Sequence record: PZ445426.1
Length of the DNA: 58,342 nucleotides
Reading direction: 5' to 3' (one strand)
DNA from: a phage
Shown: piece after piece, positions 17,292 through 57,170 of the stretch
Numbering within the stretch: the stretch's first letter is position 1
How the letters are laid out: every line of letters begins with the position of its first letter
Program-made: the position numbers and the translations under genes
Notes under the pieces: generated by a model
What the model saw: the letters and a program-made list of their open reading frames with translations, nothing else
Database searches by the model: none
What the model was told of the DNA's origin: nothing

Positions 17292-18293
17292 TTAATACAT
17301 ATTTGGTATAGCGATAGCTGGAGTAGGGATGATAATATTTCTTTCTGGTGGTCTTAAAGAAGGGGAATAGAAGTTACCAATCACTTTATTTCTTTCAGCT
17401 CTTACCTGATTATTATACATATAAACGCCATTATAACGAACATGGTCATACCCGCCATTATAGACGTTGCGCATACCGTAAAAAGCAAGCTGAATTAACC
17501 TGTTACCTATGTCTTGGTTACTTCCCGATAAAATTAAAGTCCTGTCGAATAAGAATGGTTTTCTCACTGTAGAAAATGTGACTTGCCCAATATTGTTTGT
17601 CATTGTAATACCGTCGCCAGGTGACGGTGGAGTATTATTAAAGATTACCAGCTCCATTGTAACGCTACCAGCAACGTCGTCTCGACCCGTATACGCAATG
17701 TTGCGGACTATAATGTTAGAACCATCAAAGCCAACAGAAACGTTTGGATCGCTCCATCTTGCAAACGGGATACCGGATACAGGTAGTTGCAGACTGCCAT
17801 TGACTGTAACCGTACCAGCGTATTGACAAGTCATTAGCTTTGCATTATTAGAGATTGCTGTAAAATCCGTAGAGTTAGATACATATAGACCTGTATTATA
17901 ATTGGCGGCAGGTAATACCTCCATAATTGAACCCGCCCATTGCGGTAGTTTTCCGGTATACCCAAAAGGATTACCACCCCTTAAGACAACTCCAGAATTA
18001 CCGTTCCTGGAAATAGAGGATATATAGAAAGGTGATGCGACAACTAAACCTTGATCGTAAACTTCAATAATTTCAACTGGCCTTGTTGGAATTACAAAAA
18101 TCTCAGACCCGTTAGTGAGAGGGGTATTAATGACTAACGTTTGATCGGATTGACAGCGCTGATCAAATTTAGCGCAAAAGGACAAGGCCCGTAAACCTGA
18201 TGTTATTTCCATTGCAGGTCTACCGTCATTGTAGTCTATATAAATACCCTCTGGCATAATTACTCCAACAATGTGGTTAAAGATGATAGACAA
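17292..18293 (-). CDS. hypothetical protein, inverted gene inside tail module
   Basis: 333-aa ORF on the opposite strand to all neighbouring tail genes; AT-rich divergent region upstream. Confidence 0.5.
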   Translation of the reverse strand: MSIIFNHIVGVIMPEGIYIDYNDGRPAMEITSGLRALSFCAKFDQRCQSDQTLVINTPLTNGSEIFVIPTRPVEIIEVYDQGLVVASPFYISSISRNGNSGVVLRGGNPFGYTGKLPQWAGSIMEVLPAANYNTGLYVSNSTDFTAISNNAKLMTCQYAGTVTVNGSLQLPVSGIPFARWSDPNVSVGFDGSNIIVRNIAYTGRDDVAGSVTMELVIFNNTPPSPGDGITMTNNIGQVTFSTVRKPFLFDRTLILSGSNQDIGNRLIQLAFYGMRNVYNGGYDHVRYNGVYMYNNQVRAERNKVIGNFYSPSLRPPERNIIIPTPAIAIPNMY

Positions 18294-21953: not shown

Positions 21954-21980
21954 CAGCGCGTCTTCGGGTGCGCTTTTATT
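21954..21980 (+). terminator. possible intrinsic terminator (AGCGC-gtcttcggGT-GCGCT + TTTTATT)
   Basis: short GC stem and T-tract read directly after the tail fibre gene. Confidence 0.4.
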
Positions 21981-22107
21981 GGCTGTCAATCCTAATTTAC
22001 AAAATCTTTACATTTGGATCATTGTAAAAAGCATGTTAAGGGGTATGCTTTACTTCGTAACCAGTTGGTTACATCCGCTTAACAAATCCATATATGGAGA
22101 TTTTCCT

Positions 22108-22698
22108 ATGTCTGACATGACTCTTTTACCTACTAATCTCGGTGGCGACGGTTTCGGCGGTGAAGCTGGTGCGGCCGGTATTGGTGGCGCGATCGGTGGC
22201 TTAATTGGTTCCTGGATCGGTAATGGTTGGGGTGGCAATGGTGGTTGGGGTGGTCGCGGTAACTTCGCTGGCCCGGTGGAAGTGCAAGCTTCTGTTGACA
22301 CCAACGCAATTCTGCAAGCTATCAACAACGGTACTCTTCAGACCATTCAGGGGCAGAACGGCACTAACCTGACTGTTGAGCGCTCCGCTGCTTCTACCTA
22401 TAACGGCATCACTCAGCAGAACACTCAGAACATGCTGGCTTCCGTTCAGGGCTTTGCTGGTCTGAACACACAGATCCAGGGCGGCACCAGCCAAGTGCTC
22501 GCGGCTCTGTGTAACAACGAAGCAGCTAACATTACCCGTTCCTTCCAGGCGCAGCTAGAAGCTCAGAAGTGTTGCTGCGAAACCAACCTGAACATCGAGC
22601 GTCAAGCAGAAGCTACTCGTGCGCTCCTGCGCGATCAGCACGCACAAGCGCATAATCATAGTTATTCCAACAAAAGAAATAAGTCATTGCTGCAATAA
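22108..22698 (+). CDS. glycine-rich (glycine-zipper) protein with C-terminal Cys cluster
   Basis: 196 aa from ATG 22108 (GGAG RBS); N-terminus MSDMTLLPTNLGG then long GxxxG-rich stretch; KCCCET near C-terminus. Confidence 0.5.
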   Translation: MSDMTLLPTNLGGDGFGGEAGAAGIGGAIGGLIGSWIGNGWGGNGGWGGRGNFAGPVEVQASVDTNAILQAINNGTLQTIQGQNGTNLTVERSAASTYNGITQQNTQNMLASVQGFAGLNTQIQGGTSQVLAALCNNEAANITRSFQAQLEAQKCCCETNLNIERQAEATRALLRDQHAQAHNHSYSNKRNKSLLQ

Positions 22699-22730
22699 CT
22701 GCACCAATTACAAAATACATAACCACATAT

Positions 22731-22919
22731 TCATGCATCGGTAAACTCCCAAATCAGATTATAATTATTTCCCGCTGGTACATAGCGCCCTGGACGTGGA
22801 TCGAAGCTTTTCACTGAAAACTCCAGCGTTCCAGCGCTATATAGTTGCACCTTTTGTCCGTCCCACGGTCCGCCTATCAATTTAAAAGTCTGTCGATAAC
22901 CTTTTGCAGCTCTAGCCAT
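22731..22919 (-). CDS. hypothetical protein
   Basis: ATG at 22919 with AAGGAG RBS (track start 22925 is GTG); last gene of minus-strand block. Confidence 0.45.
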   Translation of the reverse strand: MARAAKGYRQTFKLIGGPWDGQKVQLYSAGTLEFSVKSFDPRPGRYVPAGNNYNLIWEFTDA

Positions 22920-22930
22920 GCTCACTCCTT

Positions 22931-22956
22931 AAATACCCGCGCGAACGCGGGTATTT
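22931..22956. terminator. GC-rich hairpin AAATACCCGCG-cgaa-CGCGGGTATTT (terminator-like on the plus strand)
   Basis: perfect 11-bp stem read directly; T-rich tract follows on the plus strand. Confidence 0.45.
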
Positions 22957-22961
22957 CTTTG

Positions 22962-23168
22962 TTACGCTTCCGGTGTTTCCGGTGATGGTTCATCAGGAAC
23001 AACAATAACGTCGGCTAAAACTTTTAACGCTTCTTGTTGCTCCGCGGTCATATTATTCCAGTAATAGACGTGAATGTAAACTACTGGTTTGTCACCATGT
23101 TGCCACGGTTCGCGACTTACTACATCCGCAGCTAAATCGCTTGCTACGCTCTTTTCTTTACCAGCCAT
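22962..23168 (-). CDS. hypothetical protein
   Basis: 68-aa ORF in minus-strand operon. Confidence 0.4.
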   Translation of the reverse strand: MAGKEKSVASDLAADVVSREPWQHGDKPVVYIHVYYWNNMTAEQQEALKVLADVIVVPDEPSPETPEA

Positions 23169-23200: not shown

Positions 23201-23494
23201 CTAACCCCCAAAAGTACCCCTATGATCAAGGGTTCTAATGCGCTGCTCCAGCCAACGTGCGTTCTTTTCAAAATGTTTATTGGTGCGCGCTGCTTTGCAC
23301 GCATCAATAATACCTAACTCACATCCAAGCTGCGTTTGGCCCATCACGTAAGAATGGGTTAACATGCTGGATACAAGTTCTTCACATTGTAACTTAATAG
23401 GATGGTCTTGGCATAGTTTCTTTGCTGCATCCTTTAAATCCACAGCTTGGACGCCAGGCGCTATCAGCAAAGCTACGAGTAATAAACGTTTCAT
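23201..23494 (-). CDS. secreted Cys-containing protein (Sec signal peptide)
   Basis: N-terminus MKRLLLVALLIAPGVQA looks like a cleavable signal peptide; start overlaps upstream stop. Confidence 0.5.
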   Translation of the reverse strand: MKRLLLVALLIAPGVQAVDLKDAAKKLCQDHPIKLQCEELVSSMLTHSYVMGQTQLGCELGIIDACKAARTNKHFEKNARWLEQRIRTLDHRGTFGG

Positions 23495-23778
23495 TATGCT
23501 TTCCCTTTACGACATAAGGCTTGAAGTTCCAGAAGCGCATCAATGTCTTCCTGTGGAGTTACACCAACGTGAATTGGATATTTAGCGCGACATTCGTTGC
23601 CAACTTCAACAGTGTGGTTAATGTAGCCGTAAACACATCCCCCAATAACAGTGAAGATAAGCGCAACAATCATTGTAAGGTATTTACCTTGTTTGCGTTC
23701 TTCATTTTGTTTATTAAGCTGACGGTTAAGTTCCACCGCGTCGATTTTACCTTTGTTGTAATCGTCTACTAAGCTCAT
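23494..23778 (-). CDS. small single-pass membrane protein
   Basis: ATG 23778 with GAGGAG RBS; one hydrophobic helix (LTMIVALIFTVIGGCVYGYI). Confidence 0.45.
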   Translation of the reverse strand: MSLVDDYNKGKIDAVELNRQLNKQNEERKQGKYLTMIVALIFTVIGGCVYGYINHTVEVGNECRAKYPIHVGVTPQEDIDALLELQALCRKGKA

Positions 23779-23841
23779 TTTGCATCTCCTCTTGTTGTAT
23801 ACATATATTAAAACAGACCCGCGAAGGGTCTGCAAGTAGAA

Positions 23842-25827
23842 TTAGGCGTATCCCATGTCTTCGAGATACTTCTCTGCCTTAGCTATATAAGCATCATAAT
23901 CTATGTCGTCCGGTATTTTATCCGGTAGCGTCATGATTGGGACACCTCCCGCGCTACCAGCTACACGGTTGCCCGAGTTAGCATAGATTATTTCAGGGGT
24001 TTCTTCATTGGTGCTTAAATACCAGCGTACAACCTTACCCAAAAATTCGCCATTCCATACCGCGCCACCTTTCACCGCACGTAGGATAATGAATTTTCTA
24101 ATATCGTTGCAATTGCGTATAGTACGAGAAACAGGCGTACCGTGGGCCAAACATTCACATACAGCTTCCATAATAATTTCACCAGTACAGTTCTTTTGAA
24201 GTCCTGTCTTGGCAAACCAGCCCTTACGCTTAACTTCAACGTTACCTTCTGCATCAGGTTCTTTGACAGCTACATAGTTGTTAACGTTCGCGCTATATAG
24301 CTTGTCATAATAAGTGGATTCCATTTCAAAACCTGTGACGGATTCCCACCACTTGATCATGTTATCAACGAAGTCCTGCATGTGGTCGGGATACTTAACC
24401 ACAATACCATCGGTATTCGCTGAAATTACTTTAACACCGTTCAGCTCAAATGCTTCAATAAGCATTAACAGTGATAGTTGCCCTGTGATAGTTACCTGTA
24501 TCAATAATTGCGGCGCGTACAGTACGGACCACATAGACCCTAACTTACCGAACGATCCGTTGATTACGATCTTCAGCGTGTTGGCTGTGTTCTTGTCCCC
24601 TGAGTGCTTAGCTGCAATACGGCGATCTACAATACTTTTATAAACACGAAGGAACGCTGGTCCCAACTGCTCAGGGTATAATCCCTGATTAAGAATAATT
24701 GAAGGGTAATAAGACGTTACGTCAATGTCCCGCTTCTTAATACCAGGCTCTTTACCGTGACCAGCACACTCTTCGGAGCTATGCAAACCGCCAATACCCA
24801 TACGGTAGACACCGTCCGCAATCTTGATTTCAAGACCTGTTAACGCTGGGGGCAAGCTAACGCCACCGTTATCGCTAACAACAAAACGGCAGTCCCGAAC
24901 AATATCCAAAACACTATTCATCAGAGGTGTTTGAAAACGAATAAAGTCCGGTATGTTATACGCATACTTTGTTCCAGGATAAACTTGGGGACGCTGGGGA
25001 CGCACACCAGTTAATGCTTGAATTTCGTGTTTAATTACGTCTTCTGCAATCTGCGCATCAGAACGTGAACGCAGATCCACACCGTATTCTTGCGACATAA
25101 TTTCACGAAGGTGCAAAGGTTCTTGTAATGCAATAAAACATTCTTCTGTCTGTACAAGGTCGTTAATACAGTACCAGCGTACAATTAACATCTGGTCCTG
25201 CGTCAACATTGTATTTGGCTTGAACGGTAAATCCTGCATACGGCGAGTATGTACACGTCCGCCATATTGTTTCAAACCACCAGATCCAGGCAGAACTTCC
25301 ATAATATCAATGTGGTTAACGTTCTGCATACGCTTAAGGCGGTAACTCTTCAACACATCGGAAGGACGCCAATCTTCCACGATTATCTTATCGGTTGCGT
25401 GTTTAAGCTGCGCATTAGAACAGCCGTTAAGCGCAAGCGTAGCAATGGGCATATCGTACCCATTACCGTTAAAGCTTACGATAAGGAAGTTTGTCATTAC
25501 CCAGTTAAGTAACAAGCAATTTAAACTGCAACCGTGATACATTTCAAAGTAGACAACTTTCTTAGTTCGTACTCCGCGGAATGCGATCAAGAAATAGTTT
25601 GGATAACATTCGATATCATATACAAGCGGTTCGCGGTTGATCCATGCTTGAATGAGTTCGTCCTGAGTATACAGGTTATATTGGAAGTTTCGAGCTTCCT
25701 CTAGATTTGGCAAATAATCCGGGCGCTCCCAAGTGCGCTCCGGCGGTAAACGCTTAACCTTTTCTTTCTTCACTTTTGGCTCAGGCGGCAAGTCCTGCCA
25801 AAAGAAACCAATAGCATCGGTCCGCAT
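23842..25827 (-). CDS. DNA polymerase, family-B-like, with 3'-5' exonuclease domain
   Basis: Exo I-like YDIE; DVTSYYPSIIL (motif A DxxSLYPS-like); KIVINGSFGKLG (motif B-like); ATG 25827 overlaps upstream stop (TAATG). Confidence 0.7.
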   Translation of the reverse strand: MRTDAIGFFWQDLPPEPKVKKEKVKRLPPERTWERPDYLPNLEEARNFQYNLYTQDELIQAWINREPLVYDIECYPNYFLIAFRGVRTKKVVYFEMYHGCSLNCLLLNWVMTNFLIVSFNGNGYDMPIATLALNGCSNAQLKHATDKIIVEDWRPSDVLKSYRLKRMQNVNHIDIMEVLPGSGGLKQYGGRVHTRRMQDLPFKPNTMLTQDQMLIVRWYCINDLVQTEECFIALQEPLHLREIMSQEYGVDLRSRSDAQIAEDVIKHEIQALTGVRPQRPQVYPGTKYAYNIPDFIRFQTPLMNSVLDIVRDCRFVVSDNGGVSLPPALTGLEIKIADGVYRMGIGGLHSSEECAGHGKEPGIKKRDIDVTSYYPSIILNQGLYPEQLGPAFLRVYKSIVDRRIAAKHSGDKNTANTLKIVINGSFGKLGSMWSVLYAPQLLIQVTITGQLSLLMLIEAFELNGVKVISANTDGIVVKYPDHMQDFVDNMIKWWESVTGFEMESTYYDKLYSANVNNYVAVKEPDAEGNVEVKRKGWFAKTGLQKNCTGEIIMEAVCECLAHGTPVSRTIRNCNDIRKFIILRAVKGGAVWNGEFLGKVVRWYLSTNEETPEIIYANSGNRVAGSAGGVPIMTLPDKIPDDIDYDAYIAKAEKYLEDMGYA

Positions 25828-26780
25828 TAGACACGTTCTCCAATTAATACACCGCGAAGATTTTCCCCAAAGAATGCGCAAGGTTGCGGATACAAACTAA
25901 AGTCCGCGGTCTTAACCACTTTTTCAAGCAATAGCAGGATATCAATATTGTACACTCCCGTTATTGTTCGGTCCTGTAATACGAAGCTTGCACCTTCTGC
26001 ATCGTCATAATGGGTACGCGCCAGACCGTTTTCAATATATACACGAGGTCTGTCTTCAGCGAAAGGTTTGATTTTATGCAAGCCTTCAAAAAGACCTGGA
26101 TCAACAGGATGTGCATTGCATTGAACATTTAAAATACGACGTATATCGGGCCACTCCGCATCAATAAGCTGTGTCCGCAACCAGCGACCTTCCGGATAAT
26201 GAAACGTCACATTGTTCTTGCTAACCTGAATATGTGTCGGGTTAGCTTTAATGCGCAGTATTTCTTTGATAGCAACAGACGGTATTATGCAGTCAATAGG
26301 GAATTGATTACCAAACCAGTATTCCGCAATTGTGACGTTATTTGTAGCAAACAGGCTACCGTTATTGATCAGGATACCGCAAGCCCAAGGACGGGATGCG
26401 TCTGAGCCTACAAACGGGGCAACAGATTTCACACCATGTACGAAGCGAGCACCGTCTATTTCGTATAAATCGCCTTCAGGGAATACGTGAGGCGTTTCTT
26501 TATCAATACAGCGTATAGCAACACGAAACGGACCTGACTTAATATTCAGCTTACCGTTGGCCATCATTGTTAGCTGTACTGTTTCGTCGCAGTTTGAGAT
26601 AGCTTTAATCATAGGCCCAGCTTCGGGCTTACAATCAATATTCAGCTCAATAGGGCTACCCAGTGCAATAACACCGTTAAAGCCCTGTACCTGCCCGTCA
26701 CGAATAAGAAAACTGGTAAGCCCTTCTACCAGTTCCTTTTTAGCAACGGAGCCTTGAACAAATTTAAGAGCGTCTAACAT
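25827..26780 (-). CDS. hypothetical protein
   Basis: 317-aa ORF, GAGGA RBS, translationally coupled to the polymerase gene; no motif recognised. Confidence 0.5.
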   Translation of the reverse strand: MLDALKFVQGSVAKKELVEGLTSFLIRDGQVQGFNGVIALGSPIELNIDCKPEAGPMIKAISNCDETVQLTMMANGKLNIKSGPFRVAIRCIDKETPHVFPEGDLYEIDGARFVHGVKSVAPFVGSDASRPWACGILINNGSLFATNNVTIAEYWFGNQFPIDCIIPSVAIKEILRIKANPTHIQVSKNNVTFHYPEGRWLRTQLIDAEWPDIRRILNVQCNAHPVDPGLFEGLHKIKPFAEDRPRVYIENGLARTHYDDAEGASFVLQDRTITGVYNIDILLLLEKVVKTADFSLYPQPCAFFGENLRGVLIGERV

Positions 26781-56008: not shown

Positions 56009-56269
56009 ATGACTACATTCAGTCATCTGATCCCACCTGCTTATCATAGTAAGGTAGTTGACCACGGGACTCATGTTGTAATTGGTGGCGAAATCTTTAT
56101 CACAGATAACGAGGAAATCGCCATTGCAATTATTGACAGCACTCAGCATGACTTTATGGTTATCCTGCAACACGAACCCGATAACTTCACTTTTTACTCC
56201 AGCTACGGGGTCGATAAAGGTGGAAAAGATCTTGTTAGCTGGTACATTAGCGAGTGGTTTGACGGGTAA
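56009..56269 (+). CDS. hypothetical protein with HslV-like N-terminus
   Basis: 86 aa; starts MTT and has GTHVVIGGE like the HslV N-terminal strand; too short for a full fold. Confidence 0.35.
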   Translation: MTTFSHLIPPAYHSKVVDHGTHVVIGGEIFITDNEEIAIAIIDSTQHDFMVILQHEPDNFTFYSSYGVDKGGKDLVSWYISEWFDG

Positions 56270-56351
56270 TCTCCTTAGATCAATTCTCCTTGCGCCGTAT
56301 CAAGTTTCTCTGTTACCCTTGAGTGGTTCATGTCAAGCGGAGGAACTCGAT

Positions 56352-56789
56352 ATGGCACTTCAACCTCGTGGTATTCGTAATAACAATCCAGGCAATATTC
56401 GCTGGGGTGACAATTGGCAGGGCTTAGTTCCTGCTGATAAGCGGACCGATAAATCTTTTGCTCAATTCACGCAACCGATTTACGGCATTCGTGCACTAGC
56501 GAAAATCCTGACAAACTACACCAAACGTGAAGGCCTGCCAAATGTGGGTAAGAAAAACATCGACACTGTACGTGAAATTATCGCTCGCTGGGCACCGCCT
56601 AACGAAAACGATACGGAAGCGTATATTCGCTCTGTTGCCAAAGCAATTGGTGTTCAACCCAACGATCCAATTAATGTCTTTGACAAGGCAATTATGTCAG
56701 GATTGGTGAAAGCAATCATTCGTCATGAAAATGGCATGATGCCCTATACCGACGACGTAATTAACCGCGCTATTGCAATGGTACTTTAA
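56352..56789 (+). CDS. putative endolysin (by position only)
   Basis: ATG 56352 with GGAGG RBS inside ORF 56082..56789; GIRNNNPGNIRWGD motif; immediately upstream of holin/spanins but separated by a terminator. Confidence 0.35.
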   Translation: MALQPRGIRNNNPGNIRWGDNWQGLVPADKRTDKSFAQFTQPIYGIRALAKILTNYTKREGLPNVGKKNIDTVREIIARWAPPNENDTEAYIRSVAKAIGVQPNDPINVFDKAIMSGLVKAIIRHENGMMPYTDDVINRAIAMVL

Positions 56790-56825: not shown

Positions 56826-57170
56826 ATGTTCAATTCACCCAACGAACATTGGGCAGTTCTAGCGGGGTTTGCGTTTATCTCCCTTATTGGGGGAGCTCTC
56901 GGTTATGTCATGCGTACAATAGACGCTGGTAAGAAAGTAAGGGCAAGCATTGCATTTCTTGAAGGCTTATCCGCCGCTTTCTTTGGTGTTATAATGTATG
57001 CGATCTACAGGGAGTTTAACATCAGCCTTTGGTTCGCTTTTGGCCTTGCTGGCCTATTTGCTTGGGCAGGTTCACGTGCTACGCTAAAAGCCCTAACGTC
57101 GCTTATAGCTTCACGGACAGGGATCAAACTCGATTCAGGGGACTGCAAACATGAAAACGATTCTAAATAA
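56826..57170 (+). CDS. holin (three transmembrane helices)
   Basis: 114 aa; three hydrophobic helices and charged C-terminus; GGAGGGAG RBS; followed by spanin pair. Confidence 0.6.
   Translation: MFNSPNEHWAVLAGFAFISLIGGALGYVMRTIDAGKKVRASIAFLEGLSAAFFGVIMYAIYREFNISLWFAFGLAGLFAWAGSRATLKALTSLIASRTGIKLDSGDCKHENDSK

Follow-up and report, generated by a model that had tools for sequence, protein, structure and literature searches.

Two adjacent genes of a Seuratvirus (Queuovirinae) coliphage, here termed A and B, encode a well-defined, genus-restricted pair of phage ORFans belonging to an uncharacterised family, and their general kind, small phage envelope accessory proteins, is a common one. By analogy with phage T4, their products may form an early-made inner-membrane complex that, from the periplasmic face, would block the DNA entry of a second phage; we hold this reading tentatively, at a probability of roughly 0.3. 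Superinfection exclusion or envelope modification, as the initial annotation of the pair had suggested, fits every result described below, although none of them shows it. The periplasmic site of action proposed at the same time is well supported as a localization by the signal peptide of B, the topology bias of A, and the invariant, even-numbered cysteines on the predicted periplasmic side of both proteins.

The window, i.e., the whole 58,342-nucleotide stretch of phage DNA that was analyzed (PZ445426.1), is 93–96% identical between positions 22500 and 26000 to approximately 32 Escherichia Seuratvirus phages, including SeppeHuegi, KurtStettler, CAjan, Seurat, and Dru_SM1. Genes A and B (homologs of Seurat gp29 and gp28 and of DruSM1 ORF35 and ORF34, respectively) lie on the replication-gene strand, where the sliding-clamp gene and the DNA polymerase gene immediately precede them, and they directly follow the latter and a conserved terminator-like hairpin (Table 1). 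The pair had been placed at the end of the minus-strand operon; this is wrong, as three further small minus-strand ORFs follow B in the window, compared with four in its relatives.

Table 1. Positions in the window of genes A and B, their predicted protein regions and expression signals, and other genes discussed in the text.
Feature	Position	Strand	Description
DNA polymerase gene	23842..25881	-	Directly upstream of the A/B pair
Terminator-like hairpin	23813..23833	-	Found by scan; between the polymerase stop (23842) and gene A
SD of gene A, AGAGGAG	23786..23792	-	7 nt upstream of the ATG
Gene A	23494..23778	-	94 aa + TAA; predicted bitopic inner-membrane protein
A residues 1-33	23680..23778	-	Predicted cytoplasmic (alignments, K+R bias)
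A residues 34-53	23620..23679	-	Sole transmembrane helix (hydropathy)
A residues 54-94	23497..23619	-	Predicted periplasmic domain, 41 residues (alignments)
SD of gene B, AAGGG	23503..23507	-	In the final codons of A, 8 nt upstream of the B ATG
TAATG stop/start overlap	23492..23496	-	TAA of A and ATG of B share one base
Gene B	23201..23494	-	97 aa + TAG; predicted secreted periplasmic protein
B residues 1-17	23444..23494	-	Sec/SPase I-type signal peptide (MKR, LLLVALLIAPG, VQA↓VD)
Mature B	23204..23443	-	80 aa; predicted four-helix protein
ORF after B	23168..22962	-	68 aa
ORF	22919..22731	-	62 aa
Truncated ORF	22738..22613	-	Third ORF 3' of the pair
DUF6453 protein gene	17292..18293	-	333 aa; after the J-like tip gene, opposite strand
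Endolysin	56082..56789		Lysis cassette
LydA-type holin	56826..57170		Lysis cassette
157-aa ORF after the holin			Lysis cassette; putative spanin, from position alone

Both genes were found by tblastn in the same 35 phage records, all of them Seuratvirus, and both frames are intact in 34 of these. Across the E. coli Seuratviruses, the proteins are 93–100% identical. Five diverged lineages were compared, namely the window, Salmonella phage STP-SP5, Hafnia phage yong3, and two metagenomic contigs (L008 and L009); here protein identity falls to 26–57% for A and 29–66% for B, and the order polymerase, hairpin, A, B is nevertheless kept in all five, together with the TAATG overlap and the SD sequence inside A. 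The dN/dS ratio between lineages is 0.14–0.46, with dS at or past saturation. This conservation and a dN/dS well below 1 establish A and B as real genes. In an exhaustive search of 1.84 billion cluster representatives, a profile of B retrieved three true clusters and one spurious repetitive ORF, and a word-indexed search of 5.8 billion clusters with a profile of A gave twelve matches, all of the same type. Nonagvirus is the sister genus, and the polymerase of its member JenP2 is 59% identical to that of the window; there, the pair and the entire block of small genes are absent after the polymerase gene, where the minus-strand operon ends. This makes the pair an accessory insertion specific to Seuratvirus.

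The expression signals support the coupling of B translation to that of A. Gene A begins with the ATG at 23778–23776, which is also its start in all annotated relatives, and the AGGAG of its SD sequence, where a ribosome-binding site is annotated in Seurat, is conserved in all five lineages. The SD sequence of B, embedded in the last codons of A, reads AAGGA or AAGGT in relatives. The overlap of the two genes, already recognized in the initial annotation as an ATG/TAA overlap, was confirmed as a one-base TAATG overlap and is the same in STP-SP5, yong3, and both contigs. Upstream of A, the hairpin consists of GCAGACCC-TTCGC-GGGTCTGT, followed by TTTAATAT; the annotations of Seurat and SA126VB list it as a terminator. 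It forms part of a 31-nt element, TTGCAGACCCTTCGCGGGTCTGTTTTAATAT (23806–23836, minus strand), that is identical in seven loci, including the divergent contigs L008 and L009, and is thus unchanged even in contigs whose A proteins are only 40–57% identical; in STP-SP5 and yong3 the stem has changed, with pairing kept via G.U. The element looks like an intrinsic terminator, and given that the same sequence reads as a weak promoter (-35 TTGCAG, 17 nt, -10 TTTAAT), it may possibly serve as both.

Mutants of both genes are available. Ojima et al. (bioRxiv 10.1101/2024.04.14.589459) attempted the deletion of every ORF of the Seuratvirus DruSM1. According to the primer sequences, their ORF34 is B and their ORF35 is A; both are marked "Yes" under "ORF deletion mutant synthesized?", and no defense system is listed as affected by either deletion. 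As a measure of dispensability this column is lenient, since the DruSM1 polymerase gene is also marked "Yes". Judging from the published deletions, both A and B are dispensable for plaque formation. Natural variants independently support the dispensability of A. SeppeHuegi (Bas24; isolated on E. coli K-12; MZ501104.1) carries TAA at codon 61 of its A homolog (L001, 4568–4852), so that its record annotates a CDS of 60 aa from which the periplasmic domain is lost; this codon is polymorphic, being AAC (N) in the window and TAC (Y) in other phages. Additionally, a frameshifted A (P0012) occurs on five contigs. Such truncated variants, along with the lack of known domains, are what could be cited for the view that the ORFs are chance frames or decaying genes without function. 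We give this view practically no weight: besides the intact frames and the low dN/dS, the cysteine pattern, cleavage motif, and coupling signals are invariant across lineages that are only 30–45% identical.

The genes that follow the pair were also inspected. The 68-aa protein is small, acidic, and cytoplasmic, with a conserved PW..GDKPV.Y.H.YYW motif; its gene is kept in four of the five lineages and missing in yong3, and it could be a third partner of A and B or just a neighbor. A second G+C-rich hairpin, AAATACCCGCG-CGAA-CGCGGGTATTT, lies at 22931–22956 between the genes for the 68-aa and 62-aa proteins; the scan placed it on the plus strand, and it carries a terminator annotation in SA126VB. 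Beyond these genes, the window is without 2,058 bp that SeppeHuegi has (L001, 1654–3711), the junction falling at 22647–22652, with 6 bp shared by the two blastn pieces. On the plus strand, a Gly-rich gene loses its 3' end through the deletion, and a putative pyrophosphatase and three other ORFs are lost; on the minus strand, a 93-aa gene with three transmembrane segments (Seurat gp24) is lost and the homolog of Seurat gp25 is shortened at its 3' end. The deletion therefore leaves the flanking ORFs of the window, 21979..22698 (plus strand) and 22738..22613 (minus strand), truncated. The 62-aa ORF is a homolog of DruSM1 ORF32, the deletion of which is listed as altering BREX type I activity (Ojima et al., Table S1, bioRxiv 10.1101/2024.04.14.589459). 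Located two genes downstream of the pair, it is a candidate anti-BREX gene.

The presence of such a gene, whose loss changes BREX sensitivity, in the same Seuratvirus-only block of small accessory genes raises the question of whether A and B could themselves act in counter-defense, against an envelope-associated form of host immunity that senses or attacks the phage at the membrane. We consider this quite unlikely. Neither the ORF34 nor the ORF35 deletion has a listed change against the defense plasmids used by Ojima et al., the Gao library pLG001-034, and neither protein has a PADLOC match. The negative result with the library weighs little, since membrane-level systems have not been shown to be part of it. 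Papers on Avs2/Ksap1 and on SNIPE do not cover the A and B genes.

Protein A contains a single hydrophobic segment at residues ~34–53 (Kyte–Doolittle 19-residue maximum 2.0), and the initial description of a 94-aa single-pass membrane protein is thus upheld by hydropathy. In all 11 sequences checked, the N-terminal flank of this segment has 3–6 K+R residues and the C-terminal flank 1–3. This bias indicates an N-in/C-out topology and, on the basis of sequence, supports the placement of A in the inner membrane. Three cysteines are present: Cys48, within the transmembrane segment, is not conserved, whereas C63 and C89, on the periplasmic side, are invariant, as are N54, H55, K66, and Y67, and C63 and C89 probably form a disulfide. 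The best-conserved stretch of A is its cytoplasmic N-terminus, MS-x-[VI]-D-[DE]-Y-N-K-G-[KE]-I..E-L-N-R. Synonymous codon changes at D5, D6, Y7, N8, K11, I12, D13, E16, L17, N18, and R19 show that the protein, not the RNA, is under selection here.

Conservation of the N-terminal 20 residues at the protein level, in a gene that adjoins the polymerase and clamp genes, would fit a membrane tether that recruits a cytoplasmic machine such as the replisome and is stabilized by B from the periplasm. This role is improbable, because Nonagvirus has the same replication genes without A and B, A tolerates both deletion and nonsense mutation, and no clamp-binding or other known motif was recognized in A.

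Protein B begins with a classical cleavable signal peptide, as had been proposed for this 97-aa protein, with MKR as its n-region, an h-region rich in Leu, and the cleavage site V-Q-A↓V at -3/-1. The A/V-x-A cleavage motif is kept in all nine B sequences while the h-region drifts. None of the nine has a lipobox or a cysteine in or adjoining the signal peptide; the first cysteine is found at residues 28–32. The six cysteines previously ascribed to B were a miscount, as B has four (28, 37, 58, and 66), and six is the number of conserved periplasmic cysteines in the pair as a whole, two in A and four in B. Their spacing, C-x8-C-x20-C-x7-C, is identical in the nine sequences, and C28, C37, S43, Y49, G52, C58, E59, G61, A65, C66, and W81 are invariant. 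An AlphaFold2 model of B (mfa8f302e81c3) based on an 8-sequence alignment reached a mean pLDDT of 76, with 85–91 in the core, whereas a 5-sequence alignment proved too poor (pLDDT 55). The model contains helices at residues 20–27, 34–59, 63–71, and 75–88. Each pair of cysteines flanks a helix-loop-helix turn in the model, which makes two local disulfide staples likely.

A small, disulfide-stapled, helical protein predicted to reside in the periplasm could alternatively inhibit or modulate an enzyme or sensor of the host envelope, such as a peptidoglycan hydrolase, a protease, or a stress sensor, with A as its membrane holder; the benefit would then be a conditioned host envelope during infection and not the exclusion of other phages. 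Ivy-type lysozyme inhibitors work by rigid Cys-bridged loops that present a histidine. The first loop of B, between Cys28 and Cys37, reads C-[QKD]-[DES]-H-P-x-[KRE]-x-Q-C and carries H-P in eight of nine sequences, which is suggestive, but H-P is missing in yong3. The existence of DruSM1 deletion mutants would agree with such a role. However, B matches Ivy, PliC, MliC, Spackle, CpxP, and Spy in neither sequence nor fold, and restriction to a single genus would be odd for so general a target as a host enzyme. Overall, this possibility appears doubtful.

Database searches placed both proteins in families labeled "unknown function". A matches phrog_26834 over its full length (E 4.5e-65 over 1–94/94), and B likewise matches phrog_23744 (E 1.3e-66 over 1–97/97). 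For A, B, and the 68-aa gene, scans of Pfam, NCBIfam, and PADLOC gave nothing near threshold. Single-sequence and profile searches of A and B against PDB sequences returned no meaningful match, those to a defensin (E 0.12) and a pilin (E 1.7) being rejected as chance similarity to a transmembrane-like segment; the profile of B found nothing in PDB sequences at E<=10, nor did its model in a Foldseek search of the PDB. Against known exclusion proteins, Pfam, PHROGs, PDB, hhalign, and Foldseek revealed neither sequence nor fold similarity. Among T4 proteins, hhalign of B to Sp (alignment A5) gave a probability of 7.3% over 29 aligned columns, essentially the signal peptide, and B did not match the flat helical-bundle fold of Spackle (PDB 6X6O, 6XC0). 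For A and T4 Imm (alignment A2) the probability was 0.3%, and a Pfam scan of A at E<=1 was without Imm_superinfect. A further lead, from B to phrog_1256 and T4 Vs ("valyl tRNA synthetase modifier"; E 1.6e-3 over residues 1–56), was dismissed as a signal-peptide artifact: hhalign aligned only residues 1–18, at a probability of 2.7%. The N-terminus of T4 Vs (NC_000866, 4390–4734) aligns with the signal peptide of B (MTKILVLCIGLISFSASA), and this resemblance explains the spurious match. It also makes Vs look secreted, which is odd given its annotated function.

The lysis genes of the window form a cassette at 56.1–57.8 kb, 33 kb from the pair, in agreement with the earlier statement that A and B are not next to the holin/spanin genes. 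The ORF listed as endolysin (235 aa, phrog 873) is the counterpart of the DruSM1 gene annotated as such, and a Pfam scan of it at E<=1e-3 gave no match. A tail-associated lysozyme, as a possible target of a Spackle-like inhibitor, was also sought: by Pfam, the tape measure, the J-like tip protein, and the other tail proteins scanned show no muralytic domain.

The pair could nevertheless control the timing of lysis in a manner resembling T4 lysis inhibition, with A as a holin-like or holin-binding protein, B as an RI-like periplasmic regulator, and the 68-aa protein in the role of RIII. The T4 holin T is bitopic and N-in/C-out; its cytoplasmic head is functional, and its periplasmic part bears a disulfide. 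A resembles T in topology, in its cytoplasmic head of ~33 residues, and in its disulfide-containing periplasmic part, B has the length of T4 RI (97 aa) and is likewise a secreted partner, and in four of five lineages their neighbor is a gene for a small cytoplasmic protein. The likeness does not extend further. The periplasmic part of A has 41 aa and that of T about 160 aa, with no homology between the two; B has a Leu-rich N-terminus and an A-x-A-type cleavage site in place of a signal-anchor-release domain; and a LydA-type holin is already encoded by the phage in a complete, separate cassette, whereas the pair sits among replication genes. Assignment of A to the class III (T-type) or LydA-type holins was rejected because it matches no holin family in Pfam or PHROGs (T-holin included, at Pfam E<=1) and the LydA-type holin is another gene; moreover, a holin is required for lysis, and the deletion mutant of the A homolog was obtained in DruSM1. 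Likewise, B was rejected as an RI antiholin (hhalign probability 0.4%, Foldseek against the PDB empty, cleaved-type signal peptide). Deletion mutants were obtained for both genes, and the third gene is missing in yong3. Overall, a role in lysis timing is unlikely. The position of the pair on the replication strand, away from the lysis genes, is a reason for favoring exclusion.

Under the exclusion reading, A and B would constitute a Seuratvirus-specific accessory module acting in the envelope of the infected cell. The sequence evidence supports that they are made together, by way of the TAATG overlap and the ribosome-binding site of B in the last codons of A. It also supports that A spans the inner membrane with its N-terminus inside, exposing a conserved 33-residue head to the cytoplasm and a 41-residue tail with one probable disulfide to the periplasm, and that B is exported via its cleavable signal peptide and adopts a small helical fold whose four invariant cysteines probably form two local disulfides. 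Coupling and co-occurrence suggest that B may bind the periplasmic tail of A in a 1:1 complex on the periplasmic face of the inner membrane. This complex would render the infected cell refractory to further Seuratvirus infection, and the head of A probably contacts another host or phage partner. Terminal receptors differ among these phages (LptD, FhuA, and LamB) according to the BASEL study. Because the pair is 93–100% identical among phages whose receptors differ, the block would concern a genus-wide step and not the outer-membrane receptor, most likely the passage of the tape measure and DNA conduit through the periplasm and inner membrane.

If exclusion at DNA entry is correct, the pair would represent a second, unrelated instance of the arrangement seen in T4 Imm/Sp and would help in studying the poorly understood step by which small siphoviruses get through the periplasm and the inner membrane. 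Co-applied Seuratviruses would then interfere with one another, which could bear on the design of phage cocktails. In either case, the pair is clean, tractable, and non-essential, and deletion mutants already exist in DruSM1.

The conserved cytoplasmic head of A is the sole feature left unexplained by simple periplasmic models; it would be superfluous for a simple periplasmic block and hints at a function linking two compartments. A more speculative and rather improbable proposal is that A and B, perhaps with the 68-aa gene, form a trans-envelope signaling device. B would sense a periplasmic event, such as the tail or DNA of a second phage or envelope damage, and A would relay it across the inner membrane, where its invariant motif DDYNKGKI..ELNR would engage a cytoplasmic factor and change the phage program. 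Such a device would amount to a decision circuit in a virulent siphovirus, lysis-inhibition-like or anti-sigma-like (RseA/RseB-style), built of proteins without known relatives.

Like the Rz/Rz1 spanins, A and B combine a bitopic N-in/C-out protein bearing periplasmic cysteines with a second secreted protein from an overlapping gene. A two-component spanin was nevertheless rejected, because an o-spanin has to be a lipoprotein of the outer membrane and B lacks a lipobox. A further differs in its long cytoplasmic head and only 41 periplasmic residues, the putative spanin ORF lies in the separate cassette, and deletion mutants of the A and B homologs were obtained. T5 Llp and T1/phi80 Cor are phage-encoded envelope proteins directed against re-infection, as is proposed for A and B. 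They are lipoproteins, each acting on one receptor and encoded beside the receptor-binding protein, whereas A and B hardly vary among phages whose reported receptors differ. A Cor/Llp-type identity for B was rejected because it lacks a lipobox and the pair lies 5 kb from the locus of the DUF6453 protein, presumably the receptor-binding module. Beside that locus, no small Cor/Llp-type lipoprotein gene is visible in the window; DruSM1 annotates a "lipoprotein" at the equivalent place.

Similar in the proposed effect are HK97 gp15, P22 SieA, and P1 Sim, small envelope proteins that allow adsorption but halt the entry of the genome, whichever receptor is used; of these, Sim is periplasmic and undergoes processing. 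These are single proteins expressed from prophages, none of them a coupled membrane-plus-periplasmic pair, and A and B show no similarity to them in Pfam, PHROGs, or PDB. The virulent coliphage T4 offers a small membrane protein (Imm, 83 aa) together with a small secreted, disulfide-bonded, helical protein (Sp), as A and B appear to do. Both imm and sp are dispensable for growth. The Sp precursor has the length of B, 97 aa, and its mature form has 75 aa with one disulfide. The T4 genes, like A and B, sit among replication genes, imm two genes past polymerase gene 43 and sp inside the primase/helicase cluster. As Spackle (Sp) shows, exclusion can be mediated by the product of an early gene, a helical protein of ~75 aa that resides in the periplasm and carries a disulfide (PMC7677548). 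The proteins of the two phages are unrelated, with every test for sequence or fold similarity to the T4 families negative; as an arrangement, T4 Imm/Sp is the closest working analogy for A and B.
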